From an uncultured delta proteobacterium (GTDB lineage Bacteria; Desulfobacterota; Desulfomonilia; Desulfomonilales; Desulfomonilaceae), in NCBI GenBank assembly GCA_963789265.1, contig CAWBKB010000003.1:256001-320000 (forward strand): DNA of 64,000 nt, given 5' to 3'. The position numbers and the translations under genes were made by a program. Below the pieces are notes generated by a model, which was given only the letters and a program-made list of their open reading frames with translations, ran no database searches and was not told the origin of the DNA. Positions 5,691-44,986 of this stretch are shown piece by piece. How positions within the stretch are numbered: the stretch's first letter is position 1; every line of letters starts with the position of its first letter.

Positions 5691-5812
5691 GTAAGCATGC
5701 AGTCTTGTGGGGCAGGCTTTCCAGCCTGCCGGGGAAACCCCTGTTCAATGGCGGGCTAGAAAGCCCACCCCACGAAGCCATCCGCAAATTCCGGCTGTTA
5801 CTGAATGGTTAC
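5691..5812. mobile_element. MITE family A copy 1 (12-bp TIR, REP-doublet cargo)
   Basis: Ends GTAAGCATGCAG/CTGAATGGTTAC, flanks CCACTTCA/CCATTTTA. The interior is closely similar (inverted) to 29791-29923 and to the 42710-44938 backbone. Confidence 0.85.
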
Positions 5813-5831
5813 CCATTTTAACGCTTTTCTG

Positions 5832-5861
5832 TTGACTTTCACGTTCAACGACTGCTAGGTT
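5832..5861 (+). promoter_or_regulatory. Putative sigma70 promoter of the cob operon
   Basis: TTGACT-N18-TAGGTT with extended -10 TG, just upstream of the riboswitch. Confidence 0.55.
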
Positions 5862-5884
5862 GATGTCTGAATAGTTGGAACGCT

Positions 5885-6042
5885 TTGAAGAGGATAGGTA
5901 ATCCCTTTGGGGACTTAAGGGAAAACGGTGCAAAACCGTTGCGGACCCGCCGCTGTGACCGGGGACGAAAGCCGTATAGCCACTGTCAGTATTGATGGGA
6001 AGGGCGGCAAGTAGGACGAACCGGAAGCCAGAAGACCTGCCT
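5885..6042 (+). ncRNA. Cobalamin (AdoCbl) riboswitch
   Basis: AGGGAA..CGGTG.AAA.CCG, GCCGCTGTGA, GCCACTG, GGGAAGG and B12 box AAGCCAGAAGACCTGCC, upstream of cob genes. Confidence 0.93.
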
Positions 6043-6107
6043 GTCTATAGACAAGGGTGTCACGCTCTTCGTGGATCGGGAGCTTGGCAACTGGGATGAA
6101 AAACGGC

Positions 6108-6143
6108 ATCCCCGGGTAATTCTTTGCCCGGGGATTTCTTTTT
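6108..6143 (+). terminator. Intrinsic terminator/attenuator of the riboswitch leader
   Basis: ATCCCCGGGTAA-TTCT-TTGCCCGGGGAT hairpin followed by TTCTTTTT. Confidence 0.8.
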
Positions 6144-6264
6144 GCCCTTGCTGGATCGTTTCTTCTCCCCGGCCACTAAGTTCTGCCAGGCCCCGTCGAT
6201 TTTGATCCCTTGTTTCGGTCATGGTTTCCTTCTTTGACTGCAGCCTGAATCAGGCCGATCTTTC

Positions 6265-6832
6265 ATGGGCAAGAGATTTGTGGCTCGAGTAATCCTTATA
6301 ACGGGCGGCACACGAAGCGGAAAGAGCGAATATGCGACAAAGCGCGGAGAGACTCTGCCCGGCGCACGGGCCTTCGTGGCAACATGTCTTCCCATCGATG
6401 AGGAGATGACCCGGCGGATCAAGAGGCATCAACAGGAGAGACTAAACGCCGATTGGCACACAATAGAAGAGCCCCTGGATCTTGCCGACACGTTGCGAAA
6501 AACGCGGGGTTTCGATGTGTCTTCTCGTGGATTGCCTCACCCTCTGGATAAGCAACCTTATGTATCGAGCCTATCAACAGGAGGGATCCTTGTCCGAGGA
6601 AGACATGGCCGCCACAGCGAACGAACTGCTTCAAGCCTGTTCAACTATTCCGGGCACCGTAATATTTGTCACCAATGAGGTGGGATCGGGAATTGTGCCT
6701 GAAAATGATGTGTCCCGGCACTATCGCGATTTGGTAGGACGGTGCAACCAAATCATGGCCTCGGGCGCAGATGAAGTTACCTTGGTAGCCTGTGGGCTGC
6801 CGTTAATTCTTAAGAGAGGAAAACACGAATGA
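6265..6832 (+). CDS. cobU: Adenosylcobinamide kinase/cobinamide-phosphate guanylyltransferase (frameshift at ~6520)
   Basis: GGTRSGKS, RIKRHQ, LVDCLTLW, VTNEVGSG and YRDLVG motifs split across two frames. Confidence 0.93.
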
Positions 6833-7893
6833 GGCTGCTTGAAAAAACCACTAAACAGATTGTGCCACAGGAAAAAGCTGCGAGAGACAAAGCTCGGGAA
6901 CGGCTCGACCAGCTCACCATGCCGCATTGGGCCCTGGGTAGGCTGATGGATCTTGCAATTGACCTGGCGGGTATAACTCGATCCATAGCTCCACCGGTGA
7001 GCAAGCGAGTGATTGTCACAATGGCGGGGGATCACGGTGTGGTCGCAGAGGGTGTAAGCAAGTACCCTCAGGAAGTCACAGTCCAGATGGTTTATAACTT
7101 TCTGCGAGGTGGGGCTGGAATCAACGCCATGGCGCGAGTGGCCGATGCGAAAGTGGTAGTGGTGGACATGGGCGTGGCAGGGGAAATCGCCGAGGCGCCA
7201 CGAGACGGCAGCTTCTTTTCCAAGCGCATTGGAGCCGGTACCAGTAACATCGGTGCAGGGCCGGCAATGAGCCCCGAAGATGCGATACGTTCCATTGAGG
7301 CGGGGATTGAATTGGCCCTGCAACTAGGAACTTCTTTTGACATTTTCGGCACGGGCGATATGGGAATCGGCAATACAACGCCCAGCAGTGCCATTGTTGC
7401 GGCCGTCACCGGCGCTTCCCCAGCCAATGTCACCGGTCGCGGAACCGGAATCGACGACGACCAATTCAGGCATAAGATTTCAGTGATAGAGAAGATCCTG
7501 AAAGTCAACAGCCCCGACCCTAAAGATCCTTTAAATCTATTGGCCAAGGTGGGCGGCTTCGAGATCGGCGGGATTGCGGGTTTGATTCTGGGGGCCGCGT
7601 CTATTCAAAAGCCGATATTGATAGATGGTTTTATCTCTTCGGCCGGGGCCTTGATAGCTTTTGGCCTGGCTCCTGATGCAGCGGATTACATGATTGCCGC
7701 CCATCGGAGCATGGAACAGGGGCACAGAATCGCCCTGGATCACATGAACAAAAAGCCGCTGCTGGACCTGGACCTGAGATTGGGTGAGGGTACCGGAGCG
7801 GCGTTGGCGATGACCCTGGTGGAAGCCGCAGCTCGGCTACTTACCGAGGTCGCGACATTCGCCGAGGCATCTGTATCTGAAGCGGACAAATGA
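6829..7893 (+). CDS. cobT: Nicotinate-nucleotide-dimethylbenzimidazole phosphoribosyltransferase
   Basis: AGDHGV, GDMGIGNTT, GGFEIG, LRLGEGTGA motifs. Confidence 0.95.
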   Translation: MRLLEKTTKQIVPQEKAARDKARERLDQLTMPHWALGRLMDLAIDLAGITRSIAPPVSKRVIVTMAGDHGVVAEGVSKYPQEVTVQMVYNFLRGGAGINAMARVADAKVVVVDMGVAGEIAEAPRDGSFFSKRIGAGTSNIGAGPAMSPEDAIRSIEAGIELALQLGTSFDIFGTGDMGIGNTTPSSAIVAAVTGASPANVTGRGTGIDDDQFRHKISVIEKILKVNSPDPKDPLNLLAKVGGFEIGGIAGLILGAASIQKPILIDGFISSAGALIAFGLAPDAADYMIAAHRSMEQGHRIALDHMNKKPLLDLDLRLGEGTGAALAMTLVEAAARLLTEVATFAEASVSEADK

Positions 7894-7992
7894 GTCGATT
7901 TGCAGTCAAGAGGCGTGCTTACAAGCCGCCTGATTGGCCAAGTGCCGCGTTTCACAAGTGCGATGCCACTTGCTCGGTAGCGCCGGCGTCCC

Positions 7993-8163
7993 GAAACTGT
8001 CTCAAAATCGAGGTATGAGTGAGATTCGTGGCACGATGCCCCTTTTTCCAGGCAATCTCGCGTTCTGCGCGGGACCGGGGGCTACCGTCCCTCGTCCCTC
8101 CGGGAGGCTTGCCTTTGAGCCCCATCGGGGCGACAGAAAGTAGACCGGTGCTTCAGCGCCGGG
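7993..8163. mobile_element. MITE family E, truncated copy
   Basis: Begins with TIR GAAACTGTCTCAAAA and aligns with the reverse complement of 44699-44906, but lacks the second TIR. Confidence 0.75.
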
Positions 8164-8208
8164 TTGTCTGAGGCCCTGAGCGGCCCTCCTGATCGCGAGA
8201 GTAATCTC

Positions 8209-10780
8209 ATGGACATTGGACACGGCGGCAATCTGACTTATCTGGCAAGCGTTTCGGGCCTTGAAGCGGAGCGTATTCTTGATTTCTCCGCCAATATCAA
8301 TCCCCTGGGGCCGCCGGAATGGATGCGTTTCTGTCGTGAGCGCCGCGCTGGATTCCGTTGTTCATTACCCTGACCCTGCTTGTACTAAACTGGTGGCTGC
8401 TGTTGCGGGTCGTTACCGCGTGGAACCCGGCAACGTTATAGTGGGAAACGGTTCCACGGAGATCCTTCATCTCATTCCGAGAGTTCTGGGTTTGAGCCGA
8501 GCGGTCATTCCGACTCCCTGCTATTCGGATTATCTCTCAAGCGCTGTTCATGCCGGCATGCAAATCCAAACCGTTCGCCTGGAGGATGGCCAAGATTTCG
8601 CCCTGGATTTTCAGCAGCTTGAAGCCAATCTTCTAGGCAATGACCTGGTCTTCTTGTGCACGCCCAATAACCCCACCGGGGTACTGCTTGACGCCAAGGC
8701 CCTCAGAAGCGTCGCTTCGGACAACCCTTCCACGCTCTTTTTGGTGGACGAGGCTTTCGGCGACTTTGTGGAGGGCATGGACAGCCTGTCAGTTGACCGC
8801 CCCGAAAATGTGATTGTCCTCCTTTCATTGACCAAAATTTACGCAATTCCCGGTCTGCGCCTCGGCTGCGCTCTTGCCGACGCCTCCATCGTGCAGCGGG
8901 TGCTCGAATTGCAGCCCCCTTGGTCGGTCAATACCATTGCTCAGGCCGTGGGAGAGGCCGCGCTTCTAGACACCGATTACATTGAACGGAGCCGTAGGTT
9001 CGTGCAGGAAGAGAGGATAAGCCTTGAGGCAGAGCTGAAATCCATCCCGGGGCTGACGGTCTATCCAGGGACCGCCAACTTTTTATTGGTCAGGATCGAT
9101 CGCAAGGGATGGGATGCGAAGCTTCTGGCTCGGCGGCTTCTCCAAGATGGCATAGCCATCCGGGTTTGCGACAATTTCCACGGTTTGGACAAAAGCTTCT
9201 TCAGGATAGCAGTCCGGACATCTGCGCAAAACGGTCGCTTGTGCGATTCTCTCAGAAAAGCATTCGGTTGTCCGCGCAAAATTACGCGAAAGCGCAAAAC
9301 ACCTGCGCTTATGTTGCAAGGGACCAGCTCGAACGCGGGAAAAAGTGTGCTGACTGCGGCTTTCGGACGAATCCTCCTCCAGGACGGATATACAGTTGCC
9401 GCGTTCAAATCCCAGAATATGTCTCTGAACTCTTTCGTAACGAGGGCGGGTGGAGAAATGGGGCGGGCCCAGGTCGTGCAGGCTCAGGCTTGCAAGCTGG
9501 ATCCTGATGTGAGAATGAACCCCGTCCTGTTAAAACCGAACAGCGATACCGGCAGCCAAGTGATCGTTCTGGGCAAGCCTGTGGGAAACATGGATGTTAT
9601 GGAATACGTCCGGTACAAACCTCAGGCATTCGAGGCTGCTAAACAGGCTTATGACTCGCTGGCCGCGGAGAACGACGTGATGGTTCTTGAAGGAGCGGGA
9701 AGTCCCGCGGAGGTAAACCTTAAGAGCCATGACATTGTGAATATGGAAATGGCCCGACACGCGGAAGCCCCGGTCCTGATCGTGGGCGACATTGACCGGG
9801 GAGGTGTTTTTGCATCGTTCATCGGGACTATGGAAGTTCTCGCCGAGTGGGAAAGAGCACTGGTGTGCGGTTTTGTGGTGAATCGTTTCCGCGGTAATGA
9901 AGGGCTACTCCGAGATGCTATCGAATATACCCGTCGCCATACAACTCGGCCTGTGCTTGGCATAGTGCCGTACTTCCGAGATTTGGGTTTGCCGGAAGAG
10001 GATTCTGTGAGCTTCAAATGCGGAGAATTCGATGATTTTAGCCTGGACGAAGATTGTGTCGAAATAGCCGTCGTCGATTTGCCGCACATCTCGAATTTCA
10101 CGGATTTCGACGCGTTTCGTGTTGAGCCCGACGTACGATTGAAGGTGGTCAGGACCGTCTCTGACCTGAATCGACCCGACGCTGTCATTCTGCCCGGAAG
10201 CAAGAACGTCATAGGTGATTTGGAGTACTTGAGACAAAATGGCCTGGACGACAAGATAAGAGAATTGACTGTGAACTGCGGCACGGAGTTGGTGGGAATT
10301 TGCGGTGGATTTCAGATGATCGGCACGGATATCGCCGATCCCCACGGGCTGGAATCAGATCGCAAGACCCTGCCCGGCCTGGGTTTTCTGAATGTAACCA
10401 CTGTCCTGGCTTTGGAGAAGACTCTGACTCGTGCCACCGCGACCCATCTGGAATCGGGCTTTACGGTCCGAGGTTATGAAATCCATCACGGTCAAAGCCG
10501 ATCGTCTGACACTGAGCCTCTGCTCAAGCAAGATGCCGGCACGTTTGATGGAGCACGATCTCCGAATGGGCGGTTTTGGGGGACCTACCTTCATGGGATC
10601 TTTGACTCGGATGAATTCCGACGGTGGTTCATCGACCGGCTCCGTATACGCCGAGGTCTTGCCCCCAAGGGAAAAGTTTGCGCTCGGTACGACATCGAGC
10701 CTGCTCTCGACAAACTGGCTGAGTCGGTCCGCCGCTGTGTGCGAATCGACGAAATCTATCGGCTCATGGGTCTATCATGA
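8209..10780 (+). CDS. cobQ: Fused threonine-phosphate decarboxylase CobD and cobyric acid synthase CobQ (frameshift at ~8330)
   Basis: N-terminal [14 protein letters not shown] and [14 protein letters not shown] (CobD). C-terminal [26 protein letters not shown] and GTYLHG (CobQ). Confidence 0.92.
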
Positions 10781-11724
10781 GGATTGAGTACCAGATTCTT
10801 CTGGCTGTTACGTTAGATCTCATTGTCGGAGATCCTAGATGGATGCCGCACCCTGTGAAGCTGATTGGCCGGTTGGCCACGTTCGCGGAGACGCTGCTCC
10901 GGAGAATGATCAAGAATCTCCGCATAGCCGGAATTGCCACGGTCTTCCTGGTGGTGGGCACTACGATTCTCGCCACGTATGGCCTTATTTGCGGTGCCCG
11001 ATACGTGGACCCTTATGCGGGCGATTTGGTATCCATCCTCTTGCTTTGGACCGGCATCGCTGCAAAGGACATGGTCAGGCACAGTTCGGATGTTGTTGAT
11101 GCTCTGAATTCAGGCTCACTTACCGATGCGAGGCAACGGGTTGCGATGATTTGCGGCCGCGACACTGACAAATTGGATGAGTCGGATGTAGCTCGCGCAA
11201 CAGTGGAGAGTGTGGCGGAAAACATGGTAGATGGGATTGTTGCCCCGCTCTTCTATGCAGCGATCGGCGGGGCCGTCGGCATAATGGCTTATAAGGCGGT
11301 CAACACCCTCGACTCGACTTTCGGTTACAAGAATCAGAAATATCTGGAATTTGGATGGGCTTCGGCGAGGCTTGACGACATCGCAAACTTCATTCCTGCG
11401 CGGCTGACAGCCCTGTTGGTACTGCCGGCCGCGTTTTTATTACTTCAAAACCCCACCCGTTCGTTTAAAGTGTTTCTGCGTGATCGTTTAAAGCACCCGA
11501 GCCCCAACGCGGGACAGGCGGAAGCGGCAGTGGCCGGAGCACTCGGCATTCAGCTAGGGGGCTTGAGTTACTATTCCGGAATTCCTTCTAATAAGCCGCC
11601 ACTGGGAGATCCGTTGGCACCGGTGGGGCCGGAGCACGTTGCGCGAGCAAATGCTCTGCTACTCATGACCTCTGGACTGGCCCTGGCGTTTTTGTTGACT
11701 GCCAGGCTTTTGATCGTCGGCTAG
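10777..11724 (+). CDS. cbiB: Adenosylcobinamide-phosphate synthase
   Basis: GDP..PHPV, ESVAEN, NTLDS, HPSPNAG motifs. Confidence 0.93.
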
Positions 11725-11767
11725 GATTGGACTTCTTGAAAGCGCTCTTCGCGAGATTTTGTTGGAG

Positions 11768-13183
11768 ATGCATGTGAACGTTCCGTGCCCCAGAATCGTT
11801 ATAGCCGGTACCAACAGTGGGGTAGGCAAAACCTCTGTGACGCTCGCACTGGTCAGTGCGCTCAGGAGGCGTGGTCAAACTGTGCAGACCTTTAAGGTCG
11901 GTCCTGATTATCTTGACCCCACGTACCTGAGCCTCGCTTCGGGGAGACCGTGCTACAACCTAGATGGCTGGATGACCGGTGAGCCTTACGTACGGAATCT
12001 TTTTCTCGCAAAAGCATCAAATGCCGATGTTGCAGTAATCGAAGGGGTCATGGGGCTCTTCGACGGGAGTGACCCGGTGAATTCCACGGGTAGTACCGCA
12101 GAGATTGCCGCCTGGCTGGACGCGCCCGTTTTGTTGGTTGTAAACGCTCATGGAGTCGCGCGGAGCCTGGCAGCCCTGGTGAAAGGGTACGCGGAATTTG
12201 ACCCCGGCCTGAGAATTGCCGGCGTTGTCGTCAACCATTGCGGATCTGAGCGTCATGGAGAATGGCTGGCCGAATCGCTTAACGCGTTCGGACTCCCCCA
12301 GGCTGTGGCAGGCATCCCCCGTGGCGCCTTTCCTGACCTTTCGAGCCGCCATCTCGGGCTGGTAACCGCCAATTCCCGTAACCTGTCGCAAGAAGTCACG
12401 GAAGCGCTTGGAGAAGCACTGGAGCGCTACGGCCGCGTGGATGAAATCCTTAGAATCGCCCGATCCGCCCCTGCGATTCCGAATACTATCACTGCCCGAA
12501 AGGACCCGATGAATGCCGAACAATTGCGGTTGGGACTAGCCTACGACGCGGCTTTTCACTTTTACTATCAGGACAACCTTGAAGCCCTTGAAGACCACGG
12601 ATTCGAATTGATTCTTTTCTCTCCGATCGGGGACAATTTTCTACCCGAAAAGCTGGACTGCATTTATTTCGGAGGAGGATACCCCGAAGAACATGCTGAA
12701 GCCCTTGCCGGAAACACGCTCATGCTCGAATCGGTCAGGCAATTCGCGCGGACGGGTAGACCTGTCTATGCCGAGTGCGGGGGATTGATGTATCTGGCCC
12801 AGGGCATTGAGTGCAGCAACGGCCGACGCCATAATCTCGTCGGCAAGCTACCGCAGTGGACCAGGATGTCGGCTCAACTCAAAGCGCTTTCCTATGTGGA
12901 AGTCACTTTGGCGCAGGACTCGCTTTTGGGGAAACAGGGCGACAGACTCAGAGGTCACGAGTTCCATTACTCTGAGCTGATTGACGACACCGTCGTGCAG
13001 GAGGGATGGAGCCGCCCTTACCTTGTGAGCAGACGACGTTCGGGTGCAACTACACTGGAAGGATTTCAGAGTGGCAGCACAGTGGCAAGCTATGTTCACG
13101 CCCATTTCGCATCGCAACCAAGAGCGCTGGAGCATTTTGTGGCGGTTTGCGCTGCGAGTGGTGTACCAGAAGCCGCGATTTAG
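11768..13183 (+). CDS. cbiA: Cobyrinate a,c-diamide synthase
   Basis: SGVGKT, FKVGPDYLD, EGVMGLFDG, AECGGLMYL motifs. Confidence 0.93.
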   Translation: MHVNVPCPRIVIAGTNSGVGKTSVTLALVSALRRRGQTVQTFKVGPDYLDPTYLSLASGRPCYNLDGWMTGEPYVRNLFLAKASNADVAVIEGVMGLFDGSDPVNSTGSTAEIAAWLDAPVLLVVNAHGVARSLAALVKGYAEFDPGLRIAGVVVNHCGSERHGEWLAESLNAFGLPQAVAGIPRGAFPDLSSRHLGLVTANSRNLSQEVTEALGEALERYGRVDEILRIARSAPAIPNTITARKDPMNAEQLRLGLAYDAAFHFYYQDNLEALEDHGFELILFSPIGDNFLPEKLDCIYFGGGYPEEHAEALAGNTLMLESVRQFARTGRPVYAECGGLMYLAQGIECSNGRRHNLVGKLPQWTRMSAQLKALSYVEVTLAQDSLLGKQGDRLRGHEFHYSELIDDTVVQEGWSRPYLVSRRRSGATTLEGFQSGSTVASYVHAHFASQPRALEHFVAVCAASGVPEAAI

Positions 13184-13220
13184 CTGAAGACTGATGTGAG
13201 AGGCCTTGAAGTCGATGTAT

Positions 13221-13281
13221 TGGTGGGACAGGCATCTTGCCTGTCAATTCCGGATCGACAGGCAAGATGCCTGTCCCACCA
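13221..13281. repeat. REP-like inverted doublet (type B)
   Basis: Perfect 25-bp inverted repeat TGGTGGGACAGGCATCTTGCCTGTC; each arm is itself a hairpin. Confidence 0.85.
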
Positions 13282-13314
13282 TGACAATTATAAAATGGAG
13301 CACTTAAGAAACCT

Positions 13315-14001
13315 ATGAACCTTACACCTTCGAATAGACCCCTCATTTACGCTCTGCACGAAGATCCCATGAGCCCGGAAGCGATCGAAGCCCGCTCTTT
13401 TGAAATCATCGAACAGGAGATTGAGACCCATTCGTTTTCTCCCGACCAGTGGAAGGTCGTGAGGCGCATATTGCATACCACTGCGGATTTTGGGTTGGTG
13501 GACTACGTGAAATTCTCAGACGACGCTATCGAATCAGCTATCACTGCGTTACGTTCCGGGAGTCCGATCTTTGTGGACTCGAACATGATCCGCTCAGGGC
13601 TCTCCCTGGCAAGGCTCAAACGAGTTTGTCCCAACTACGGGCCCGACGACCTCGTTTGTCATGTGGCAGACGAAGACGTCGCAAAAAAGGCTGCTGAGAG
13701 CGGACTGCCTCGTTCTCTTTTTGCCGTGCGTAAGGCTGCCGGCACCCTGGACCGTGGAATCGCCGTTTTCGGCAACGCGCCCGTGGCTCTGATGGAACTG
13801 AATCGCCTCATAATAGAAGAGGGCGTCAGACCGGCTATAGTCATAGCCATGCCTGTGGGATTTGTTCACGTGGTCGAAAGCAAGCAGGAGCTGATGTCTC
13901 TGGGAGTGCCCCACATTACGATCAGCGGTCGCAGAGGGGGCAGCCCCCTGGCGGTCAGCACGGTGCATGCGCTCTGCTCCCTGGCCGGTGAGCGGACGTG
14001 A
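13315..14001 (+). CDS. cbiC: Precorrin-8X/cobalt-precorrin-8 methylmutase
   Basis: IEARSFEII, RRILHTTADF, GNAPVAL, PVGFV, GRRGGS motifs. Confidence 0.93.
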   Translation: MNLTPSNRPLIYALHEDPMSPEAIEARSFEIIEQEIETHSFSPDQWKVVRRILHTTADFGLVDYVKFSDDAIESAITALRSGSPIFVDSNMIRSGLSLARLKRVCPNYGPDDLVCHVADEDVAKKAAESGLPRSLFAVRKAAGTLDRGIAVFGNAPVALMELNRLIIEEGVRPAIVIAMPVGFVHVVESKQELMSLGVPHITISGRRGGSPLAVSTVHALCSLAGERT

Positions 14002-14020
14002 CCGATAAGAGAGGTGTGGA

Positions 14021-15575: not shown

Positions 15576-15576
15576 G

Positions 15577-23823: not shown

Positions 23824-23870
23824 CCGGGTATCATTCCCATCTCGGTTTTCAAATCCCTTATCACTTCCGC

Positions 23871-24027
23871 GTATCCTTTCAGTTACCTGGGGTCATCGAC
23901 CTCTTCCAATCGGTGTCATTGCGAGCGAAGCGAAGCAATCTTATTTCTGGAAAGCGTCCAGAACTGAGATTGCCACGTCGCTTTGCTCCTCGCAACGACA
24001 TTTTCCCGTCCGTAGGTTAATGGTTAC
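23871..24027. mobile_element. MITE family A copy 2 (cargo: TGTCATTGCGAGCGAAGCGAAGCAATC-type palindrome)
   Basis: Ends GTATCCTTTCAG/GTTAATGGTTAC; 8-bp flanks ACTTCCGC/ACTTTCGC. Confidence 0.75.
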
Positions 24028-24029
24028 AC

Positions 24030-24075
24030 TTTCGCTATAGTTTCGCTTGACTTTCTGTTTATATTCGTATATTTT
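24030..24075 (+). promoter_or_regulatory. lexA promoter with putative LexA operator array
   Basis: TTGACT-N17-TATTTT overlapped by TTTC-N7-TTTC-N7-TTTC-N7-ATTC. Confidence 0.6.
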
Positions 24076-24138
24076 GAAGATTGAAGTTGTACGCTCTGCT
24101 TGCCGGTCTACGAGCAGGAGAATAGGAGTCTTCAATCT

Positions 24139-24759
24139 GTGCAGTCATTGACCAAGAAACAAAGAATGGTTCTCGATTATATACGCCTGTTCCTCTCAGA
24201 GCAGGGTCATGCGCCGAGCTACGAGGAGATAGCCCGCGGCCTCGGACTTTCGTCACCATCCACCATCCATGCGCATGTGGAAAATCTCAGACAAAAAGGC
24301 TACCTCAAGAAGCGTTGGAATGCCAATCGCTCCATAGACCTGTCGGAACCAGTAGATATGCCGCACACTACCGAAGAGCTTCCCTTGGTCGGGCGCATAG
24401 CTGCGGGCTCACCTATAGAGGCCATTGAAGATCGAGAGTCGATCGCGGTGCCGGCACATCTCGTCGGCCGGCACGACACATACGTGCTGCTGGTGAAGGG
24501 TGATTCTATGAGAGAAGATCACGTGCTCGACGGCGATTATGTGATCGTGGAAAGACGAGATACCGCTTCGGATGGGGAGATGGTGGTGGCACTCATACGG
24601 AATGGCGAGGCCACGCTCAAGAAGTTCCACCGGATTGGGCGCAAGATAAGGTTGGAACCTGCCAATCCTGCTTATGAGGCAATGATTTTTGACGAAAGCG
24701 AAGTCATGGTCCAAGGAGTAGTGATCGGGCTGTTGAGAAAGTACGACCTCAGGTCGTAG
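24139..24759 (+). CDS. lexA: LexA repressor
   Basis: wHTH (APSYEEIA), IAAG cleavage site, GDSM Ser, ATLKK Lys; AGGAG RBS before GTG at 24139. Confidence 0.95.
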   Translation: MQSLTKKQRMVLDYIRLFLSEQGHAPSYEEIARGLGLSSPSTIHAHVENLRQKGYLKKRWNANRSIDLSEPVDMPHTTEELPLVGRIAAGSPIEAIEDRESIAVPAHLVGRHDTYVLLVKGDSMREDHVLDGDYVIVERRDTASDGEMVVALIRNGEATLKKFHRIGRKIRLEPANPAYEAMIFDESEVMVQGVVIGLLRKYDLRS

Positions 24760-27888: not shown

Positions 27889-27917
27889 ATACTATCGCTG
27901 CTGCGAGCTGATGTCAA
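27889..27917 (-). promoter_or_regulatory. Putative sigma70 promoter of prs-rplY
   Basis: TTGACA-N17-TAGTAT on the minus strand. Confidence 0.7.
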
Positions 27918-27930
27918 CGTGAATTAGACT

Positions 27931-29780
27931 CCATAATCCACCACCTCATTTGGCGGAGGATCTCTTGATGTCCCCTTGGACCGAAAATTTACCCTTGGTT
28001 ATGTCCCCCGCCCATGCGAACCGGACCAGGTAGCACGTCGGACCGATTCGTATGCCGAATTCCCCCTGCTCGGGCGGATTTCCGGCACACTAACCCCCCC
28101 CGGTCAGTCTATTTCCACCCGTCTGCGCCTCATTTCCCCCGTCGGCGGCGCTCTCTAGCCTGACTCGCAAAGGCTCAGAATTCTCCTCCTCATTTCAAAT
28201 AGTGTCTCGTTCGACGCATGCCCCCCAACCAGTCGAACACGCAGCATCCGAGCACGCTTGAGCACGCGTCCCGGCAGCTTGATCAACCAGAACCTTATGG
28301 CCTTCATGCGCTTGCCCACCCATGTTTCTCCCAGAACCAGGCGCTTCATCGCCGAGTTCAGGTTCAAAGCCAAGATCATGATGTGCCACCATGCTGCGTT
28401 TACCCCGAAATACCCTGAAGGAAGTCTGCCCCCTGCAAGATCTTCCTTCATAACCGAATGCGCCTCTTCAGATTTACCGCAGCGCTCTCTGTACCACCAA
28501 ATCAGCTCGTCCCCAGGAATGTCACGATTCGTGACAATCCCGAACACCTTGTACTTCATCGACCCAAAATGCATGGTAGGAAACGGCAATGAAACTTGCC
28601 CATCCATCTCCGGAAGTTCCGGCTGCTCCAAAACCTCGCGAATAGCCAGGTACCGGAAACATGGACCATCTTTCTTGCGTGCGAGCTCATCGGGAACGAA
28701 ACAGACCTCCGCGTACCTCTTGACCCCTTGTAACCAAGCCATTCTCAGTCTTGCGATACAAACTATGCCAATCCGACTCCTCAACCTCGCGAACAGCCTG
28801 CCTGAACGATTCGGTTACCTTGGCCCCTATGGCAAACTCGATGACACCGAAACGCAGCTTCTTCGGCTCCGCACAGAACCTCATCAGCTCATGCTGATAT
28901 CCTGCCGTATCCGACCGCAGATATACCTTCGACACCCCCGCAGGCAGGAACCCCAAGGCCTCTTCAAAGACGCGAAGATTGTCCTTACCGGCCCAGACGT
29001 TGCCGTCTCGGAACTCCGAGTGCACAATGAGATCCTGTTCCGCCCAGTACACCTGCAAAGGCTGATACGCCTTGTGCCCCTTGTAGCAGTAGAGAGCCTC
29101 TCGCTTGTTCGTCTCCACCACCGTCGCATCGAGATCCAGAGTCGCTACCTCCTGAGGAGACCGCTTCTGCACCGAGCCCAGAAAATCCTCGTTCACCTGC
29201 ATCATCGCTCGCAAACGGGGGGTCGGCATCGGTATGAAAGAAGTGCCCGCCTCCCTGAGCTTCTCCTGCTCGGGATCGTGAAACTGATACAGATACCGGC
29301 TGGCCGAAGAAGGAGACGGCACCGACCTCTTCTGCCCCTTGCGCAGCCTCTTGCTCAGGACTCGTCTCTCCTGTCGCGGTTTTCCAAACCCCATTGACTC
29401 CCGAAGTACCCGACAAAATCCCTCGTCTCCTTCCAGTATCTCCAGGTCGCTGATCCCTTGACCGTCCGCCAGATTCAGAAGTATCAGAGCCATTACTGTC
29501 TCGGAGTCAGACCACCCCTGGGCACCTGATCGCACCTTGAGCCGATTCTCTATGGCCCTGCTCAACCCCATCACATACCCGAATTCCAGGTATGTCGGCA
29601 ATCCGGCCAACGCCGTCATCCCCCCAGGCTTCTTCTCAACCTCATACTGGAAAGGGAAAATGCCTTGTGCCATAATCACTTCACCTCGTTGGTGATAGAT
29701 CCTTGTTGCAAACCGGATTCTATCCTCTTGATTCCTCAAGAACAACGAGGTTTTTCACTTTTTTTGATGCGCAATCAAGG
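27931..29780 (-). mobile_element. IS1380-family insertion sequence, 1850 bp
   Basis: Imperfect ends CCATAATCC/CCTTGATTG, 4-bp TSD GACT on both sides, DDE transposase inside. Confidence 0.88.
28155..29673 (-). CDS. IS1380-family transposase (frameshift at ~28715)
   Basis: TLDLDAT, SEFRDGN, LRSDTAGY, WYRERCGKSEEAHSVMK, NAAWW motifs. Confidence 0.9.
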
Positions 29781-29790
29781 GACTTTTGCT

Positions 29791-29923
29791 GCATGCATTC
29801 AGTTACAGCCGGAATTTGCCGGTGGCTTCGTGGGGTGGGCTTTCTAGCCCGCCATTGAACCGGGGTTTCCTCGGCAGGCAGTCCCGCGCCTCGCGGAACT
29901 GCCCCACAAGACAGAATGGTTAC
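29791..29923. mobile_element. MITE family A copy 3
   Basis: Ends GCATGCATTCAG/CAGAATGGTTAC; perfect 8-bp TSD CTTTTGCT. Confidence 0.9.
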
Positions 29924-29931
29924 CTTTTGCT

Positions 29932-30058
29932 CTAATCATTCACTCACGAGTTGGTCATGTCTATACAACCTTCTCCAACCCAACGCGGGCACAATTTTCC
30001 CGAAGGTCAAAGCAGCCGTCCCCCTCTTCCCCACTCCTCTTCCCAAGTAAATGCTTGC
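29932..30058. mobile_element. Degenerate older MITE family A copy in tandem with copy 3
   Basis: CTAATCATTCAC begins immediately after the TSD; possible right end GTAAATGCTTGC. Confidence 0.45.
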
Positions 30059-35179: not shown

Positions 35180-35299
35180 TTTTGCTCCTCAAAACCCCAC
35201 GTGTGGCGCCGATCTTTAGACTCAGTTTATGGACTCTATTGTAATCACAAGAACATCTTGAGTCAAACGTCCGGGGATTAAGGTTTTGCACCCATTTAC

Positions 35300-35503: not shown

Positions 35504-35507
35504 CCGG

Positions 35508-38500: not shown

Positions 38501-40897
38501 TCCCACATAGGATTTATATTGCCTGCCTCATCCCGCTTTTGGGTGTAAAAATATTTCTTCTGCATTATTTGGGCTTCGATTTTGCCCGAAGGGATCTTCT
38601 TCCCTGTCTGATCCACCACAATAACCTTCAGCGGAGCAGCATAGCCGGACTGAACGCGGCGCGGGTGATTGGAAATGCCCAAAAGTACACGGGGTTGTGG
38701 GTTGAAGGTTTCCACCTCTGTGGCGGGCTCGCCGTCAATATCCAGCACTGTAGCTGAAATCTTTACGCCATAGATGCCGGTAAGCAAACGGGGATCCAAG
38801 GGGATTGTCAACCGGAGGTTTCCATCCCGATCCAACATGGATTCTCCCGATTCAAGAAATAGCGTTTTATCGTCCTCATTTCCGAAAAAATAACCATCCA
38901 GATTCGCGACCTTGTGGACAGCAGGCACAAGCATCGCCTTCCACCGCATGCGTGCATTTTTGACCGGTCCTCCAGTGTAATAACGGCTCTTCACGTCAAC
39001 CATGACAAACTCGTCCTCATGCTTGAAGCCGATATACTCCGTGCTTAGCCGTTTCCCTTTCTTAACTGAAAGAGAAACATAGTGGCGAGGCCTTTTGAAT
39101 TCTTGGACAAGGAATGTCCTCGTGAACAAGTTTTGTTTGTTGTCGCCGGCGGCTGTCGCTTTTATCGTGTAAGTCCCGACAGGAAAAAAATTTCTAAGTT
39201 GAAAAGTGTCGTAACAGCTTCCAAACTCACTCAACTTCAACTCTTTGCTGTAGAGAAGATCTCCTCGCGGACCCTCGATGTCCACTTTGACCGATTCGCC
39301 GGAAGGGGAGACGATGCGATTGCCTTTGTAATCTCTCGACATAAACTTGTAATGTACCACGTCTCCGGGGCGGTACACCCCACGTTCGGTGAAGATGTAT
39401 CCGGTTTGAGATGCCGGATTAGCCTGCAAATGTTTAGTCTGCTTGACAGAGAAAGGTTTCAGGGCAAGCGATTCAACTCCTATGCAGGACGCGTCCGAGG
39501 AAGTTGCTGCTACTGCCCATTTCAGTTTGGACAGGGCCAGATTTCCTTTGGTAGTTGCTGTGGCCTGAAGCCCTGATAATGTCGGGAACTCTTGTCCGTC
39601 TTTGACGAACAGCAAACCGTTCTTATCCGTCTTGCCTACCATGTACTTGTGATCGTCTACGTCCGACAGATAGATCTCTGCACCTGAAACAGGACTTCCT
39701 GTATGAATAGAGGTAACCCAAAGAAGCAGGTTCTTCGCCGACCTCTTGTAACCCACTGAGAGGTCCGTAATCTGAACAAGCCGTTGGGCACTCCCATGAA
39801 AACGTCCATCCGGGTCTGTAAATACAGCCACCCAAAGCCCACCTTTGGCCGGGTGCTCCCGGAAAGATAAAGGAACTGAGTAACCGTAGACGTGGTCAAG
39901 GGCCTCGGGAGCAAAGAACGCGTCCGAGTCCTCAGTGTATTCCCCTGCGAACGCGCCGCTGATCCTGCCGGAGCGGACCAGGTTTTTCAGTGCTGCTATT
40001 TTGTCCTTGAGTTTCAATTGCTTGAGGTCTTGCCCGTTCCAGAGAGCTTCAGCCGTTTCGGGCGCCAAGTACAGGGGGAATTTTAATTAGTTGGCAGCGT
40101 ACCTTTGTCACATTGGCCAAACTGAGGGGAAACAGTTGTCGGCCGCGAAGTTCCACCACGGAGCGTTCCGTCTTAAGATAAATTTCCGGCTTGATACCAG
40201 GGCCCTTGAAACGATATTCCCCGGCTTGGAGCAGACCGAGTCCGTTATTCACTCTGGCGGAAGAGATTTCCAGAAGGTAATCACGACCGTACTCGAAGTT
40301 CCCCGTGACGCGGAATCTCCAGCCGCCAGTTTTCGCAATGTTTAAGCCGGCCACGCTGGGTGTGATTTTCAGCGCGGTCACGAGATCATTCTCAGGAATG
40401 TCGCCCGATAGAGACAGGGTCAGCCCTTTGTCGGTCTTGGACCGATAGAAGGTACTCAGGTTGGTCACGGATATCTTTTCAATTGATATGAACTGATAAG
40501 TGAAATCGTGTACAAGCAGTTGTCTCCCGGTCACGTCGGAGAGCCCTTTGTTGATCGCGATCTTGACCGATGCGGGTTGCTCGGAAATCAGGATAGGCAC
40601 GAGCCTGAACTCACGTGCAGGAGCCGTAGCTTTCTCACGGTCCCGGACGCTCTGAATTTCGAATTTCCCCGCGGCGCCGTCAGTCAAGACTTTGGTCTGA
40701 GAGGCCAGATTCGACGGAAATACCGGCTTGTTGAAGGTCAGAGTGACACTCCACTTCCCCGGGGTCTCTGGTGGATAATAGGCATCCCGACGAGCATGTA
40801 CCGTCAAATCGTCGGCAAGGGCCAGGCCGGATACCCCCGCGAGAATTGCAAATAAGACAAGAATCAGCGGCAGCTTGCATCGAAATAGTCTGTTCAT
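35508..40897 (-). CDS. Bacterial alpha-2-macroglobulin (frameshifts at ~40075 and ~35720-35780)
   Basis: TERGVYRPGD (MG2), VVDEAVL, thioester YPYGCIEQ. The C-terminal YLARAV..GEF..MYNP lies in a shifted frame ending at TGA 35508-35510. Confidence 0.9.
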
Positions 40898-41125
40898 GGC
40901 TATAACTCCCTACCGATACAGAAGGGACGTCAGCGCAGGTTCGCTCTCCTCCCCTGGTTCATAAAGAACAGGAACAAATTAACCGAAAACGTACCAATAA
41001 AATCTTAGAGGTGTCAAGATATTCATTCAATGCTAATATTTGTGTGCATGTCAATTTTCATTCTGTTATATTTTGATACAAGAAAAGTAAAGCGTAAGCA
41101 ATGCTTTCATGGACTCGGGTGACGA

Positions 41126-41311
41126 ATGAAAGTCAAGGACAAAAGGACCGGACAATCGACCGGGACATCCAGCGGTCCCCTCCGGATTCACGAGGACGAT
41201 GGAAAACTCTTTGTGACCGGTTTCGGATTGTGGATCCCCGTTGAAACGGAAAAAGAGGGGCTTGAGCTTATTTATGAGCTGGAAGAGCAGGGCTACCGTC
41301 TGTGCCATTGA
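41126..41311 (+). CDS. Small hypothetical protein
   Basis: 61-aa ORF in an intergenic gap with protein-like composition (LFVTGFGLWIPV). Confidence 0.5.
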   Translation: MKVKDKRTGQSTGTSSGPLRIHEDDGKLFVTGFGLWIPVETEKEGLELIYELEEQGYRLCH

Positions 41312-41538
41312 ATTGAGTGTGTGCCGGACAAAGTCATAATGTGGCAGCTTACTGTGATAAAGATGTTGTGTAAGCAACAGGGAGGAAGTCGCTTCGAGCG
41401 TCGAAACAGGTAGGGTCTCATCTGGGGCCCCTTTTGTCACTGATCTGCGAATTTGCGTGGGGAGATTCAAAATCGGTGCGGCGGTTGGGGGAGTCATCAT
41501 ATAACTGCCAAGACCGGCCGGCACGCCTACCGAGAGCC

Positions 41539-42171
41539 TCAATCTTCAAACGACTTTACATAACCTGAATCGGAACTTTCTTCTCGCCAGGCGCCACCCC
41601 GAATTCCCTGGGTATCCTTCATTTTTTCATAATGGTCGGCCTCTTCCTGGCACCGCACGCAAAGTCTGGCCGCAGGGAACAGCCGAAGCCTCTGTTCGGG
41701 GATGGGTTCGCCGCACTCCTCGCAAATACCGTATTCGCCATGCTTCAACCGCTCCAAGGCATCTTCTATTTCTTTCAACTGCTTGTGCTGACGCATGGAT
41801 ATTTTTGCATCAAGCTCTCTGGAGATTTCACCGGTGGCCAAGTCTATTTCGTCACCTTTCTCGATGGCGTCGATGCTTCGGCCAACTTTAATGGACACCA
41901 GTTGATCCATGAGGACCTGCTTCGGGTTGAACGCCCCGGGAGTGTCAGGCCTGGACTTCTTAACCTCCTCAATCGGTCTTCTGGTCGTAGGCGGAGGTTC
42001 AGGAGCGAGCGTCTGGGGCGCTTTCTGTTCTGACGTGCCTGAATCCGCAACTCGATAGTAATTCTTTCCGTCCTCCACTTTCCTCTCAATCTGGCCCTTC
42101 TGAACCTTTCCCCTAACGCTGTTAGGGACGATGCCCAGAGCAGCCGCTATTTCTTCACGGGTCATCCACAT
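41539..42171 (-). CDS. DksA/TraR C4 zinc-finger protein with N-terminal HTH-like domain
   Basis: DEIDLA (DxxDxA), YGICEECGEPIPEQRL..LCVRCQ; N-terminal MTREEIAAALGIVPNSVR. Confidence 0.8.
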   Translation of the reverse strand: MWMTREEIAAALGIVPNSVRGKVQKGQIERKVEDGKNYYRVADSGTSEQKAPQTLAPEPPPTTRRPIEEVKKSRPDTPGAFNPKQVLMDQLVSIKVGRSIDAIEKGDEIDLATGEISRELDAKISMRQHKQLKEIEDALERLKHGEYGICEECGEPIPEQRLRLFPAARLCVRCQEEADHYEKMKDTQGIRGGAWREESSDSGYVKSFED

Positions 42172-42466
42172 TATCGCGACTCCTTGGTAGTTTCTTTCGT
42201 CCGCGTTAAATAATCACTAGGACGCGTATTTGCAAGGGCCTCCTCCATTTTATTCTGAATGGCCCCAAAATCAGACTGCCCTGAGCAGTCATCGTCTGAG
42301 TTCCCAATTGTACCGACATCGGCCCCATCCGTCAGTTGATAGCATTGCTACCGGTGTCGACGTGTCGTCTTGCGACCCCGCTGTCGTAACAGAAAAGGGG
42401 CCTCTGCGCGGACGCGAAGTCATATATCTTCTCCAACGAACTGTCAACCTTTTTTTACCTGAAATT

Positions 42467-42701
42467 GCAATCATTCACTTACGCGCGGGAAGAGGTTGTC
42501 ATTGCGAGTCCCGCCTCCCGCGGGACGAAGCAATCTTTTCCTTTAAACGCCGCTTAGATTGCCGGTGGGAGGTCCCGCGCGGAACGCGGGATTCCCCGTC
42601 ATCCCTAATAGACAGGCAGTCCCGCGAGGCGCGGGACTGCCCCACCATGCACTCCCCGCAATGACAAGGGCAAAAGATCCCCCGCATAAGTGAATGGTTA
42701 C
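42467..42701. mobile_element. MITE family A copy 4 with nested palindromes
   Basis: Ends GCAATCATTCAC/GTGAATGGTTAC; interior TGTCATTGCGAG...CGCAATGACA holding a type-B doublet. Confidence 0.75.
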
Positions 42702-42749
42702 CGCACTTTGTATGCATTCAGTTACAGCCGGAATTTGCCAGTGGATTCG

Positions 42750-44644
42750 ATAGGGGTAGGAACGACCGGTTACCCGGCGCTCCCCCCTCCGAACCGTACG
42801 AGCGGATCTCCCGCATACGGCTCTCCGGTTGGTGGTTCACCGCTGGGCGGATTGACCGGCCAAACGATAGGCTGTGGCAAGGAAGAACAACCCATGTTCG
42901 GCGAAGAAAGCATTGGGCCAGCGGACATGATCGACACCTCGGCCACGGCCGGAGCCGCCACGCCGGCGGCGCAAGATACTGCGCAGACGCATGCGTATCC
43001 AGCCGTCCAGTGGAGCAAAGGTCGTGTAATGACTGTGTTTGAAGTACTCAAACCAGCCCCCGAGGGTTCGGTTCACATCCAAGACGATCGCCGAAAGACT
43101 GTGACCGTTGGTGCGCTTGGTCTTGGCTCGGAGAGTGTCTTTCAGTTTCCGGAGACTCTTGGGCCGAGGCCATCGCATACCCCGCTCAAAGTGATAACCC
43201 AGAAAATCGAATCCGCCTCGGGCGGTCGCATCGACGATCCGGGTCTTGGTGGGGTGCAAACTCAGACCGGCCGTGGTCGTCCAGTCCTGAACAAGAGCCA
43301 GCGCAATATGCGCCTCCCCCTCCGTCCGGCACAGGATCACAAAGTCATCGGCATACCGCACCATCTGGACACCATGTCCAGCCATCAGATGGTCAAGGGG
43401 GTCAAGATAGATGTTGGAGAGCAGTGGAGACAGGACAGCCCCTTGGGGGGTACCTGTCTCGGGAGTCCAGCACTCCATCGTATCCATTACCCGTTGACGC
43501 AGGAACGACTCCACGAGGTCCAAGAGAGGCTTGTCGGCAAGCTTTCCCCGAAGCCGGGCCATGAGAGGATCATGGGGAATCGTATCAAAGTAGGACTTGA
43601 GATCCGCATCCACGACAAAGACATGGCCCTGGCGAAGCAGGGCATCGACTCGTCGCAGTGCGTCCTTGCAGCCGCAGCCCGGACGAAACCCGTAACTGTG
43701 GACAGCAAAGTCCTTTTCAAATATCGGTTCCAAAACATTGCGCAACGCAGCCTGGACCACGCGGTCACGAACCGTGGGTATGCCCAGCGGTCGTTTTTCC
43801 GCCGTTCCGGGTTTGGGTATCCAAACCCTTTTGATGGCCTGAGGCCGGTACGTTCCCGTCCGAAGACTCTCTTCCAAAAGCCTAAGATTATCTTCGAGTC
43901 GGGACTCGAACATCTCGATGGTCTGATGGTCGACGCCCGGCCCCCCTTTGTTCGCTTTCACCGTGGCAAAAGCGCTCTTAAGGTTCGTCGGAGAGCTGAC
44001 CTTGTCCATCAGGCTGTACCATTTGCCGCCTTTCACCCCGTTTTCCAGGGCCGTCAACATACGTTTTGTCCAGACACTAGGTTCAACCCAGGACCATCGG
44101 TCTCGGGTCTCTCCGGCCGGTTTAGTTCCGCACACAGCGCGGCACACTGGAGTCGGTTTCTCCTCCTCTTGTCTGATACCCACGTATCCACCTCCCTGCC
44201 CCCCTTGGCTCCGCGCCCATTACGGCGCCTCGACGCTACTATGGGGGCTCTGACTCCTGTACGCCTCTTCCCGGCGTACAGGTCTCCCTGCTTCACGTAC
44301 TCAACCTTCCTGACCATTCCGTCCCTAACCACCTTGTGTTCCTCTGTTGTCGCTTTTCCTTCCGCCACTTTGTTTGTCAGCGCAACAGATCTCGTACCTC
44401 TGTACCGTGTATTGTCGCGTTCCGGCGACTCAGGCCTCAGGAGATACGTCCAGGCTTCACCTTTCCCTAGCAGGCTCGCCGAAAACACCCGGCCGAAACG
44501 GGTTTGTCAGCCTACGGACTGGTCGTTCGCCCCCTGCTGCTCTCCACCCCGCCTCGCAGCGACGCAGTTGCAGGCGGCTACAGGCTGTAGCGTGGACCTG
44601 GAGAGGACTTGCACCTCTCTGATTAAGTACGCTCGCAGGCGCAC
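42750..44644 (-). mobile_element. Group II intron (1895 nt)
   Basis: 5' GTGCG, domain V GAGCCGTATGCGGGAGATCCGCTCGTACGGTTC, domain VI ending CCCCTAT. Boundaries are confirmed by the empty MITE copies. Confidence 0.93.
42837..44183 (-). CDS. ltrA: Group II intron reverse transcriptase/maturase (no endonuclease domain)
   Basis: RPLGIPTVRDR, SYGFRPG, GTPQG, RYADD, FDFLGY motifs and X domain; no HNH domain. Confidence 0.93.
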   Translation of the reverse strand: MGIRQEEEKPTPVCRAVCGTKPAGETRDRWSWVEPSVWTKRMLTALENGVKGGKWYSLMDKVSSPTNLKSAFATVKANKGGPGVDHQTIEMFESRLEDNLRLLEESLRTGTYRPQAIKRVWIPKPGTAEKRPLGIPTVRDRVVQAALRNVLEPIFEKDFAVHSYGFRPGCGCKDALRRVDALLRQGHVFVVDADLKSYFDTIPHDPLMARLRGKLADKPLLDLVESFLRQRVMDTMECWTPETGTPQGAVLSPLLSNIYLDPLDHLMAGHGVQMVRYADDFVILCRTEGEAHIALALVQDWTTTAGLSLHPTKTRIVDATARGGFDFLGYHFERGMRWPRPKSLRKLKDTLRAKTKRTNGHSLSAIVLDVNRTLGGWFEYFKHSHYTTFAPLDGWIRMRLRSILRRRRGGSGRGRGVDHVRWPNAFFAEHGLFFLATAYRLAGQSAQR

Positions 44645-44698
44645 TGAGGTGGGCTTTCTAGCCCGCCATTGAACAGGGGTTTCCTCGGCAGGCTGGAA

Positions 44699-44906
44699 GA
44701 AAGTGTCTCAAAACCATTTTGATGCTCGGAATCGTGGCACGATGGCAGCCCGGCACTAAAGTACCGGTCTACTCTCAATCGCCCCAATGGGGCTCAAATA
44801 CTGGCGTCCCGTAGGGACCTGAGACAGTAGCCCGGTAATTCATTGCCGGGGAAAACGGTCATTCGTGGTACGATTTCGTCCAGTTCAAGGGTTTTGAGAC
44901 AGTTTC
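44699..44906. mobile_element. MITE family E, complete (208 bp)
   Basis: 15-bp TIRs GAAAGTGTCTCAAAA/TTTTGAGACAGTTTC; 4-bp TSD GGAA in a REP hairpin loop. Confidence 0.88.
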
Positions 44907-44957
44907 GGAAAGCCTGCCCCACAAGACTGAATGGTTACCGCACTTTTGGCTTTTGGC

Positions 44958-44986
44958 TTGACACATCGGCCGGGCTTCATTAATAT
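44958..44986 (+). promoter_or_regulatory. Putative sigma70 promoter of the rpsP operon
   Basis: TTGACA-N17-TAATAT. Confidence 0.7.

Follow-up and report, generated by a model that had tools for sequence, protein, structure and literature searches.

We analysed a 64,000-nucleotide stretch of DNA from an uncultured delta proteobacterium (the window; G000:C3:256001-320000, where G000 is an assembly of 6.06 Mb in 9 contigs) that contains six copies of a miniature inverted-repeat transposable element (MITE), five ends of which stand exactly 19 nucleotides (nt) from the -35 hexamer of a predicted sigma70-type promoter. A preliminary description of the window had counted five MITEs and proposed that all five gaps from MITE end to TTGAC(A/T) are 19 nt; recounting on the sequence gave 19 nt at each of the five loci, and the 19-nt observation is thus confirmed.

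MITE copies and predicted promoters in the window

The five promoter-facing MITE ends lie beside genes identified through Pfam and Rfam. At the cob locus, a 122-bp MITE (5691..5812, ends GTAAGCATGCAG / CTGAATGGTTAC) lies between 8-mers that match at 6/8 positions (ccacttca, 5683-5690; ccatttta, 5813-5820), and its right end at 5812 (CTGAATGGTTAC) is 19 nt from the TTGACT of the predicted cob promoter (5832..5861, plus strand; -35 at 5832-5837, 18-nt spacer, -10 TAGGTT at 5856-5861), with a cobalamin riboswitch (5879-6058) and then cobU and cobT downstream. The lexA MITE (23871..24027, 157 bp), between the target duplications acttccgc (23863-23870) and actttcgc (24028-24035), ends at 24027 (GTTAATGGTTAC) with the same gap to the TTGACT at 24047-24052 of the predicted lexA promoter (24047..24075, plus strand; 17-nt spacer, -10 TATTTT at 24070-24075), which precedes the LexA open reading frame (ORF) at 24100-24759. 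Further along, a MITE spanning 42710..44938, with an exact duplication of cgcacttt (42702-42709 and 44939-44946), ends at 44938 (CTGAATGGTTAC), 19 nt from the TTGACA at 44958-44963 of the predicted rpsP promoter (44958..44986, plus strand; 17-nt spacer, -10 TAATAT at 44981-44986) and ahead of the ORF for ribosomal protein S16 (45025-45294). It is stacked 8 bp behind another MITE (42468..42701, 234 bp, ends GCAATCATTCAC / GTGAATGGTTAC), whose degenerate left end, GCAATCATTCAC from 42468, is 19 nt from a minus-strand TTGACA (TGTCAA at 42442..42447, with -10 TATGAC) upstream of a gene for a DksA-type zinc-finger protein (41539-42171, minus strand).

The prs locus requires one correction. A 133-bp MITE with an exact duplication of cttttgct (29791..29923; duplication at 29783-29790 and 29924-29931) has its left end facing the predicted prs promoter (27889..27917, minus strand; -35 TTGACA, read as TGTCAA at 27912-27917, 17-nt spacer, -10 TAGTAT, read as atacta at 27889-27894), but an IS1380-like insertion sequence (IS; DDE_Tnp_1_4, 27931..29780, minus strand) sits within the spacer between the two, so that the hexamer is followed by 13 nt up to the IS and by 6 nt onward from it to the MITE start at 29791. 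In a BLAST search against the genome, two 99.9%-identical copies set the limits of this IS at 27931-29780 with GACT on both sides, and the prs gap is therefore 13 + 6 = 19 nt, as had been proposed on removal of the IS and one copy of GACT. A degenerate MITE (29932..30057, right limit approximate, ends CTAATCATTCAC / AAATGCTTGC) is stacked 8 bp behind the prs MITE. All five hexamers have a readable -10 box at 17-18 nt spacing, in keeping with the earlier expectation of a plausible -10 for each -35, while the stacked pairs at prs and rpsP and the group II intron in the rpsP MITE had been missed. In all, CTGAATGGTTAC occurs 12 times in the window with at most two mismatches, compared with 3.6 occurrences expected.

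Several further features lie in or beside these elements. The group II intron within the rpsP MITE comprises a reverse transcriptase/maturase ORF (42837-44183, minus strand) and an Rfam Intron_gpII match (42750-42825, minus strand), and spans approximately 42746-44700. A 660-amino-acid (aa) plus-strand ORF in the same MITE (42690-44672) was considered as a transposase and rejected, as it is without a Pfam match and runs antisense to the intron reverse transcriptase. The transposase of the IS1380-like window copy is carried by two overlapping ORFs (28687-29745 and 28155-28784), and the further copies of this IS are at C3:200061-201910 and C5:688454-690302. A selenocysteine tRNA (Rfam RF01852, 71 bits; 5389-5482, minus strand) lies just upstream of the cob MITE.

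A genome-wide register and an 8-bp target duplication

The 19-nt gap is a property of the genome and not only of the window. TTGAC lies 19 nt away in 46 of the 586 genomic matches to CTGAATGGTTAC with at most two mismatches, against 7 at 18 nt, 2 at 20 nt and 0-3 at each remaining offset in the range 0-59, which is the sharp peak that the preliminary description had predicted. Ends matching GAATGGTTAC exactly have TTGAC at 19 nt in 8/52 cases, and ends with at most one mismatch in 36/468. Pairing left and right ends that lie 50-450 bp apart and share a duplication with at most two mismatches gave 96 pairs, of which one was redundant and dropped, leaving 95 paired MITEs; those with at most one duplication mismatch are mostly 100-250 bp long. 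The flanking 8-mers are identical in 49 end pairs, compared with 0-3 pairs for k = 3-7 and 9-12, bearing out the proposal of 8-bp target duplications whose sequence varies by site. At offset 19 on the better side, 30 of the 95 match TTGAC at 5/5 positions and 10 at 4/5, while 12 control offsets yield 0-2 full matches and 1-5 at 4/5. The orientation of the MITEs is free, with the promoter on the right genomic flank in 17 and on the left in 14. These repeats are short and numerous, contain no transposase ORF, and have inverted ends, a target duplication and the ends of an autonomous element (the L003 type, described below), all of which are features of MITEs.

The hexamer as target DNA

The 19-nt stretch between MITE end and hexamer is different at every locus, and the 8-bp duplication directly adjoins GGTTAC, which together identify the hexamer as target DNA rather than cargo. 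Related genomes retain the corresponding empty site. The nearest congener is G026, at 89% identity in this region, and in it the sequences on either side of the lexA MITE meet with a 9-nt overlap: the empty site reads ...cccctgtc ACTTTCGC tacagtttcgc TTGACT, with one copy of ACTTTCGC, and the window site reads ...cccttatc ACTTCCGC (157-bp MITE) ACTTTCGC tatagtttcgc TTGACT. A MITE-free lexA site that keeps TTGACT is present in G026 and four other congeners, and the lexA -35, like the flank upstream of it, does not vary among all six genomes of the genus. At cob, the -35 TTGAC is kept in 5/5 congeners examined, with the -10 region ctgctaggtt in four and ctgctaggct in G026, and the predicted rpsP promoter is conserved in the 5 congeners examined. 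Three predicted window promoters, those of lexA, cob and rpsP, are thus conserved in congeners. Different MITE-type ends stand at the rpsP promoter in G029 (at 19 nt) and in G030 (at 20 nt), and G026, G027 and G028 have no such end there; this distribution reads as repeated, independent hits on one promoter.

Stacked copies point in the same direction. At rpsP, the order is MITE (42468-42701), cgcacttt, MITE (42710-44938), cgcacttt, and prs shows a like pattern with cttttgct; genome-wide, a right end, exactly 8 bp and a left end follow one another in 10 cases, and each other gap in the range 0-40 accounts for one case at most. Such stacking is the trace expected of repeated insertion at one promoter-relative coordinate, and it implies that only the promoter side determines the site. 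These findings support the original proposal of position-specific insertion upstream of sigma70-type promoters that spares the core promoter.

An IS66-family element with the ends of the MITEs

Matches to IS66 domains in G000 are found only at C3:479571-480353 and C7:313691-314468, both outside the window, in agreement with the earlier statement that the window itself holds no cognate transposase. The C7 locus belongs to an element of 1595 bp (G000:C7:313437-315031; L003 638-2232) whose ends, GTAACCATTCAC...GTGAATCCTTAC, are those of the MITEs, which lies 19 nt from a TTGACA and which encodes IS66-family domains; we refer to it and its relatives as the L003 type. Its transposase is split into pieces of 305 aa and 193 aa, scoring 131.5 and 82.1 bits on the NCBIfam IS66 model, NF033517. 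Intact relatives (P0122, L119 and L137) score 249, 239 and 227 bits on this model (cut-off 180) and also match PF03050 (DDE_Tnp_IS66) and PF13005 (zf-IS66). At E <=0.01, the IS66-type proteins match IS66, ISL3 and IS6 models only, with no ISKra4 or ISLre2 model among these matches. The Mutator-like autonomous partner (ISH6/ISLre2 type) that had been expected is thus not supported; the IS that shares the MITE ends is an IS66-family element.

The L003-type relatives are 1546-1619 bp long and have one ORF, of 458-477 aa. The classical three-gene IS66 layout, in which tnpA, tnpB and tnpC include two accessory ORFs upstream, is absent from them, and the one-ORF layout thus places them with the single-ORF IS66 group, presumably the group called ISBst12-like. 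Hallmarks of IS66 elements are ends starting with GTAA and an 8-bp duplication; the L003-type elements and the MITEs have ends GTAACCATTCA... and an 8-bp duplication, which is 8/8 in autonomous copies. One MITE-sized deletion derivative of the C7 element is present, at C6:187178-187359. In a plasmid collection, we found no close named relative, the best annotated matches (e.g. ISH10 family) being below 30% identity.

The C7 element lies between two inverted copies of a 7-copy repeat ending in ...gtcttttcccTTGACAGAGGGCCTTTTAATGGGTGACCC (L003 598-622 and 2252-2276, with five more sites in G000), at distances of 19 nt and 15 nt and without a matching duplication; sequence of this repeat also flanks the metagenome copy L185.

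The IS66 element at C3 is of a second type (L001 402-1988, ends GTAATCGTTCA), with a protein that is ~24% identical to that of the L003 type. A 3.4-kb pair of ends at C3:479401-482803 was considered as an autonomous element and rejected, because it comprises this L001-type IS66 element, then a 490-aa ORF unrelated to it and one more element end. The same 8-mer, cgtttttt, flanks the outermost ends of this region (L001 402-3803), which may be a composite transposon; the 490-aa ORF has a weak match to an inverse-autotransporter beta-domain.

Mutator-like transposases are themselves represented in G000 by six identical intact matches to the ISKra4-family model and a seventh, split copy (C1:346650, C1:834722, C1:1437075, C1:2266572, C5:370928, C5:836159 and C8:120443). 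These copies end in GGGTGCCGCGATTTCTTGTCA / TGACAGAAAGTAGCGGCACCC (GGGTGCCGCGATTTC...), unlike the MITE-type GTAACCATTCAG, and no G000 match to the ISLre2 model reaches its cut-off. The ISKra4 copies have AT-rich duplications of ~8 bp and belong to a family known for promoter targeting.

The 19-nt habit across IS66 clades

Autonomous copies in other genomes follow the same rule as the MITEs. L003-type relatives are present in 28 other genomes of the 122 searched in the class (29 including G000). From 40 copies fetched, 29 have inverted ends matching at 12/16 positions or more, and 22 of these 29 also have a 7-8/8 duplication; the remaining 11 of the 40 have no credible ends and were left out of the counts. 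TTGAC lies exactly 19 nt away on one side in 12 of the 22 well-delimited copies, and in 15/29 at any duplication quality. The promoter-facing end is on the 5' side of the transposase in 9 of the autonomous copies and on the 3' side in 6, which is no orientation bias.

The same register is seen in G045, a finished 6.5-Mb genome from the same family as the window genome, where a protein identical to its transposase is named IS66 family transposase (Desulfomonile tiedjei) at NCBI. The exact end TGAAGCTTTAC occurs there in 27 copies, with TTGAC at 19 nt in 9, at 20 nt in 1, and at none of the other gaps from 10 to 30. For distant metagenome loci, an unconstrained inverted-repeat search gave spurious ends, and single-end scoring was used instead; among 97 ends with at least 30 nt of flank at 80 metagenome loci, TTGAC is at 19 nt in 25, at 20 nt in 4 and elsewhere in at most 2 per offset. 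Of the 93 flanks that reach 50 nt or more, 37 have TTG at offset 19, and control offsets give 1-6. For three metagenome contigs (L185, L190 and L210), the simplest account is assembly across a multi-copy IS that unites the flanks of different copies, or recombination between copies.

The L001-type clade serves as a control. It too has inverted ends (GTAAsCGTTCA) and 8-bp duplications, but among the 27 copies with ends matching at 11/16 positions or more and a 7-8/8 duplication, from 78 loci given to the end-finder, TTGAC is at 19 nt in 0/27.

What is recognised at the promoter

We propose that the repeats, which are short, non-coding, and bounded by GTAAsCATTCAs inverted ends and an 8-bp target duplication, are MITEs mobilised in trans by the DDE transposase of a single-ORF IS66-family element, which targets promoters from one side. 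We consider this proposal quite probable; the trans mobilisation would account for the ends, duplication and target that the MITEs share with the L003-type elements. The IS66 clade concerned would choose its target from one side only, with a cut that places the 8-bp target 11 bp upstream of a sigma70-type -35 and so leaves 19 nt from the element end to TTGACA; by conventional promoter numbering, the target would lie at about -54 to -47. The core promoter would survive the insertion, either orientation would be possible, and later insertions would take the same promoter-relative spot and push earlier copies outward.

What the transposase senses there is a separate question. The targets resemble whole promoters in a sequence logo from 93 metagenome flanks that were not selected for TTGAC. 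Although about half of these flanks are expected to represent the non-promoter side, diluting the signal, the logo shows TTGACA at 19-24 and T/A/A/A/A/T at 42-47, with a 17-nt spacer, as well as T-rich positions at 12-14 and a C at 18. In G000, TAnnnT at 16-18 nt follows 5% of TTGAC sites overall and 13% of those outside ORFs, but 47% of the 30 that adjoin a MITE. The T-rich/C flank is also present, in weaker form, at 476 promoter-like sites genome-wide, and is thus a promoter feature of this organism. Occupancy was compared at non-ORF TTGAC sites under a rough coding mask (ORFs of 100 aa or more, picked greedily and covering 74-84% of each contig), and some 'non-ORF' sites may in fact be genic, where selection would remove insertions: with a T-rich flank, a MITE end is at 19 nt in 18/147 sites with TAnnnT and 16/435 without (odds ratio 3.7, Fisher p = 0.0004), and with a T-poor flank in 4/261 with and 5/1869 without (odds ratio 5.8, p = 0.017). 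As sequence lying over 40 bp away from the cut thus affects occupancy, we incline to the view that the complete promoter is sensed, in the simplest case through an RNA polymerase-sigma70 complex bound to it, and we give this about an even chance. That this IS66 clade independently evolved recognition of RNA polymerase-sigma70 on the promoter, integrating 19 bp upstream of the -35, is a narrower claim that we put forward tentatively. There is a small chance that something other than the complete promoter or the -35 and its flank is recognised.

Several observations weigh against parts of this proposal, and the crudeness of the coding mask is one of them. At offset 19, 35 of the 95 paired MITEs match only 0-2/5 of TTGAC, which is background. 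Both IS66-type transposase genes of G000 are split by frameshifts, leaving no evidently active partner in this genome now, and for most MITE subfamilies the similarity to the IS is limited to the terminal ~12-14 nt. As for polymerase sensing, targets very often have a perfect TTGAC, occupancy persists where TAnnnT is absent (16/435), and one recurrent target, TTGACAGAGGGCCTTTTAATGGGTG, which is the end of the 7-copy repeat on both sides of the C7 element, has no obvious -10 box. In a start-codon scan for ORFs of 100 aa or more, one begins within 250 nt on the promoter side in 18/30 cases and on the other side in 12/30, and within 400 nt in 19 versus 19; the greedy ORF map gives 12/30 versus 8/30 within 300 nt. 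These gene-context counts do not discriminate because MITEs sit between genes. Structure prediction gave no guidance, as the AlphaFold2 model of P0122 from a 12-row alignment is poor (mean predicted local distance difference test score 60, predicted template modelling score 0.38, catalytic core below 50), and the predicted complex of the transposase with region 4 of G045 RpoD (residues 505-589) scored 0.00, which speaks neither for nor against binding.

Among the other ways to explain the register, one is direct reading of DNA. Here, a DNA-binding module of the transposase would, independently of RNA polymerase, bind the -35 TTGAC together with the T-rich sequence upstream of it, and a fixed protein ruler would set the cuts 11 and 19 bp upstream. 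The rigid spacing to the -35 box fits this, as do the perfect TTGAC in 30/95 MITEs and 12/22 autonomous copies, a flank that is T-rich at 13, 14 and 16 with C at 18, the repeat-end target without a clear -10 box, and a T-rich flank that raises occupancy even where no -10 box is present (16/435 vs 5/1869). P0122 moreover has, at residues 160-184, a helix-turn-helix ahead of the catalytic domain with a Sigma70_r4_2-like match, but this is below threshold (E = 0.0096, 16 bits, cut-off 25.7), and such matches are common and may be chance. The T-rich/C flank, being general to promoter-like sites here, need not be a transposase motif, and the -10 signal in the unselected logo, together with the 3.7-fold and 5.8-fold rise in occupancy that TAnnnT ~23 nt past the hexamer brings within flank classes, argues for more than the -35 region. 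We regard direct reading as possible but would not favour it. It is highly unlikely, on the other hand, that insertion is random and selection then keeps the copies 19 nt from a -35, for instance with the end acting as an upstream promoter element or regulator site. In E. coli, upstream promoter elements lie in the region that matches the position of the MITE end, and the ends are conserved, both of which suit such a role, but selection would hardly produce a peak one nucleotide wide, present in both orientations and recurring across genomes with different terminal sequences (GTAAAGCTTCAG, GTAACCCTTCAG and GTAACCATTCAG); stacked copies are kept although the outer one no longer abuts the promoter, and the sister clade with similar ends shows nothing of the kind.

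The two remaining explanations concern the identity of the element itself. A MITE 25 nt longer than supposed, carrying an outward-facing -35 of its own, would explain why TTGAC stands at a constant distance from a conserved end, but this is already contradicted by the locus-specific 19 nt, by the duplication adjoining GGTTAC directly and by the TTGACT kept at the empty site of G026 and four other congeners, and we give it practically no credence. A Mutator-like transposase of ISLre2 or ISKra4 type would come from the sole superfamily that we found described with such a target habit (PMC3942029), and G000 does contain the intact and split ISKra4 copies listed above; however, the ends of these copies, GGGTGCCGCGATTTCTTGTCA / TGACAGAAAGTAGCGGCACCC, are unlike those of the MITEs, nothing reaches the ISLre2 cut-off, and the IS that has MITE-type ends is of the IS66 family. 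Mobilisation by a Mutator-like enzyme is already disfavoured on these grounds and appears exceedingly improbable, and an IS66-family transposase that targets promoters from one side is the reading that we retain.

Comparison with known systems

The MITEs described here resemble Correia elements, RUP and MITEAba12 in being short, non-autonomous, bounded by inverted ends and target duplications, and abundant in intergenic DNA, but we know of no single-nucleotide register to a -35 box in those families. With respect to target choice, a parallel may be drawn with the yeast Ty1 and Ty3 and fission-yeast Tf1 retrotransposons, which reportedly integrate beside promoters by binding transcription machinery. 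Like these, the elements here occupy a defined place upstream of transcription units in a manner thought to be gene-sparing; Ty1, Ty3 and Tf1, however, are eukaryotic retroelements tethered by integrase-polymerase contacts, and for the elements here such contacts would be hypothetical. Their copies would mark promoters at single-nucleotide resolution in uncultured lineages and would show how a mobile element can reach ~100 copies per genome while sparing genes, and a promoter-homing transposase could serve in promoter trapping or gene-sparing insertion. Because a non-targeting sister clade with similar ends offers a natural negative control, the determinant of recognition should be tractable by domain swaps and comparative sequence analysis.

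Within the IS66 family, the L003-type elements are like the single-ORF group in their DDE_Tnp_IS66 and zf-IS66 domains, GTAA ends, 8-bp duplication, ORF of ~460 aa and element length of 1.55-1.62 kb. In the literature searched, to which ISfinder and most subscription journals did not belong, we found nothing on IS66 elements that target promoters; the part of PMC8024623 available to us only lists ISBst12-group copies.

The closest bacterial parallels are TnGBS, ISLre2 and the ISKra4 group, which, as far as the accessible part of the source describes them, insert 13-17 bp upstream of the -35 of sigmaA promoters, with an orientation set by inverted-repeat asymmetry and a specificity that is called unique (Guerillot et al. 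2014, PMC3942029). The preliminary description had placed the precedent mainly in Firmicutes elements of this kind, but the same text already lists ISKra4-group elements with the promoter habit, near-perfect inverted repeats and insertion in both orientations (PMC3942029). Like these systems, the elements here belong to the DDE transposons, go in at a short, fixed spacing ahead of the -35 and do not disrupt the promoter, and the occurrence of both insertion orientations among the IS66-type elements and MITEs recalls the ISKra4 group in particular, whereas ISLre2 and TnGBS, in the portions consulted, keep to one orientation. They differ in that the transposase passes the IS66 model and falls outside p-MULT 3/4, that the main peak stands 19 nt from the element junction, with small ones at 18 and 20, rather than at the 13-17 given in that source, and that the habit is seen mostly through a large population of MITEs. 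In the portions of the literature examined, a single transposase superfamily accounted for fixed-distance insertion upstream of bacterial promoters, and the same promoter habit in another, unrelated DDE family would be a case of convergence.

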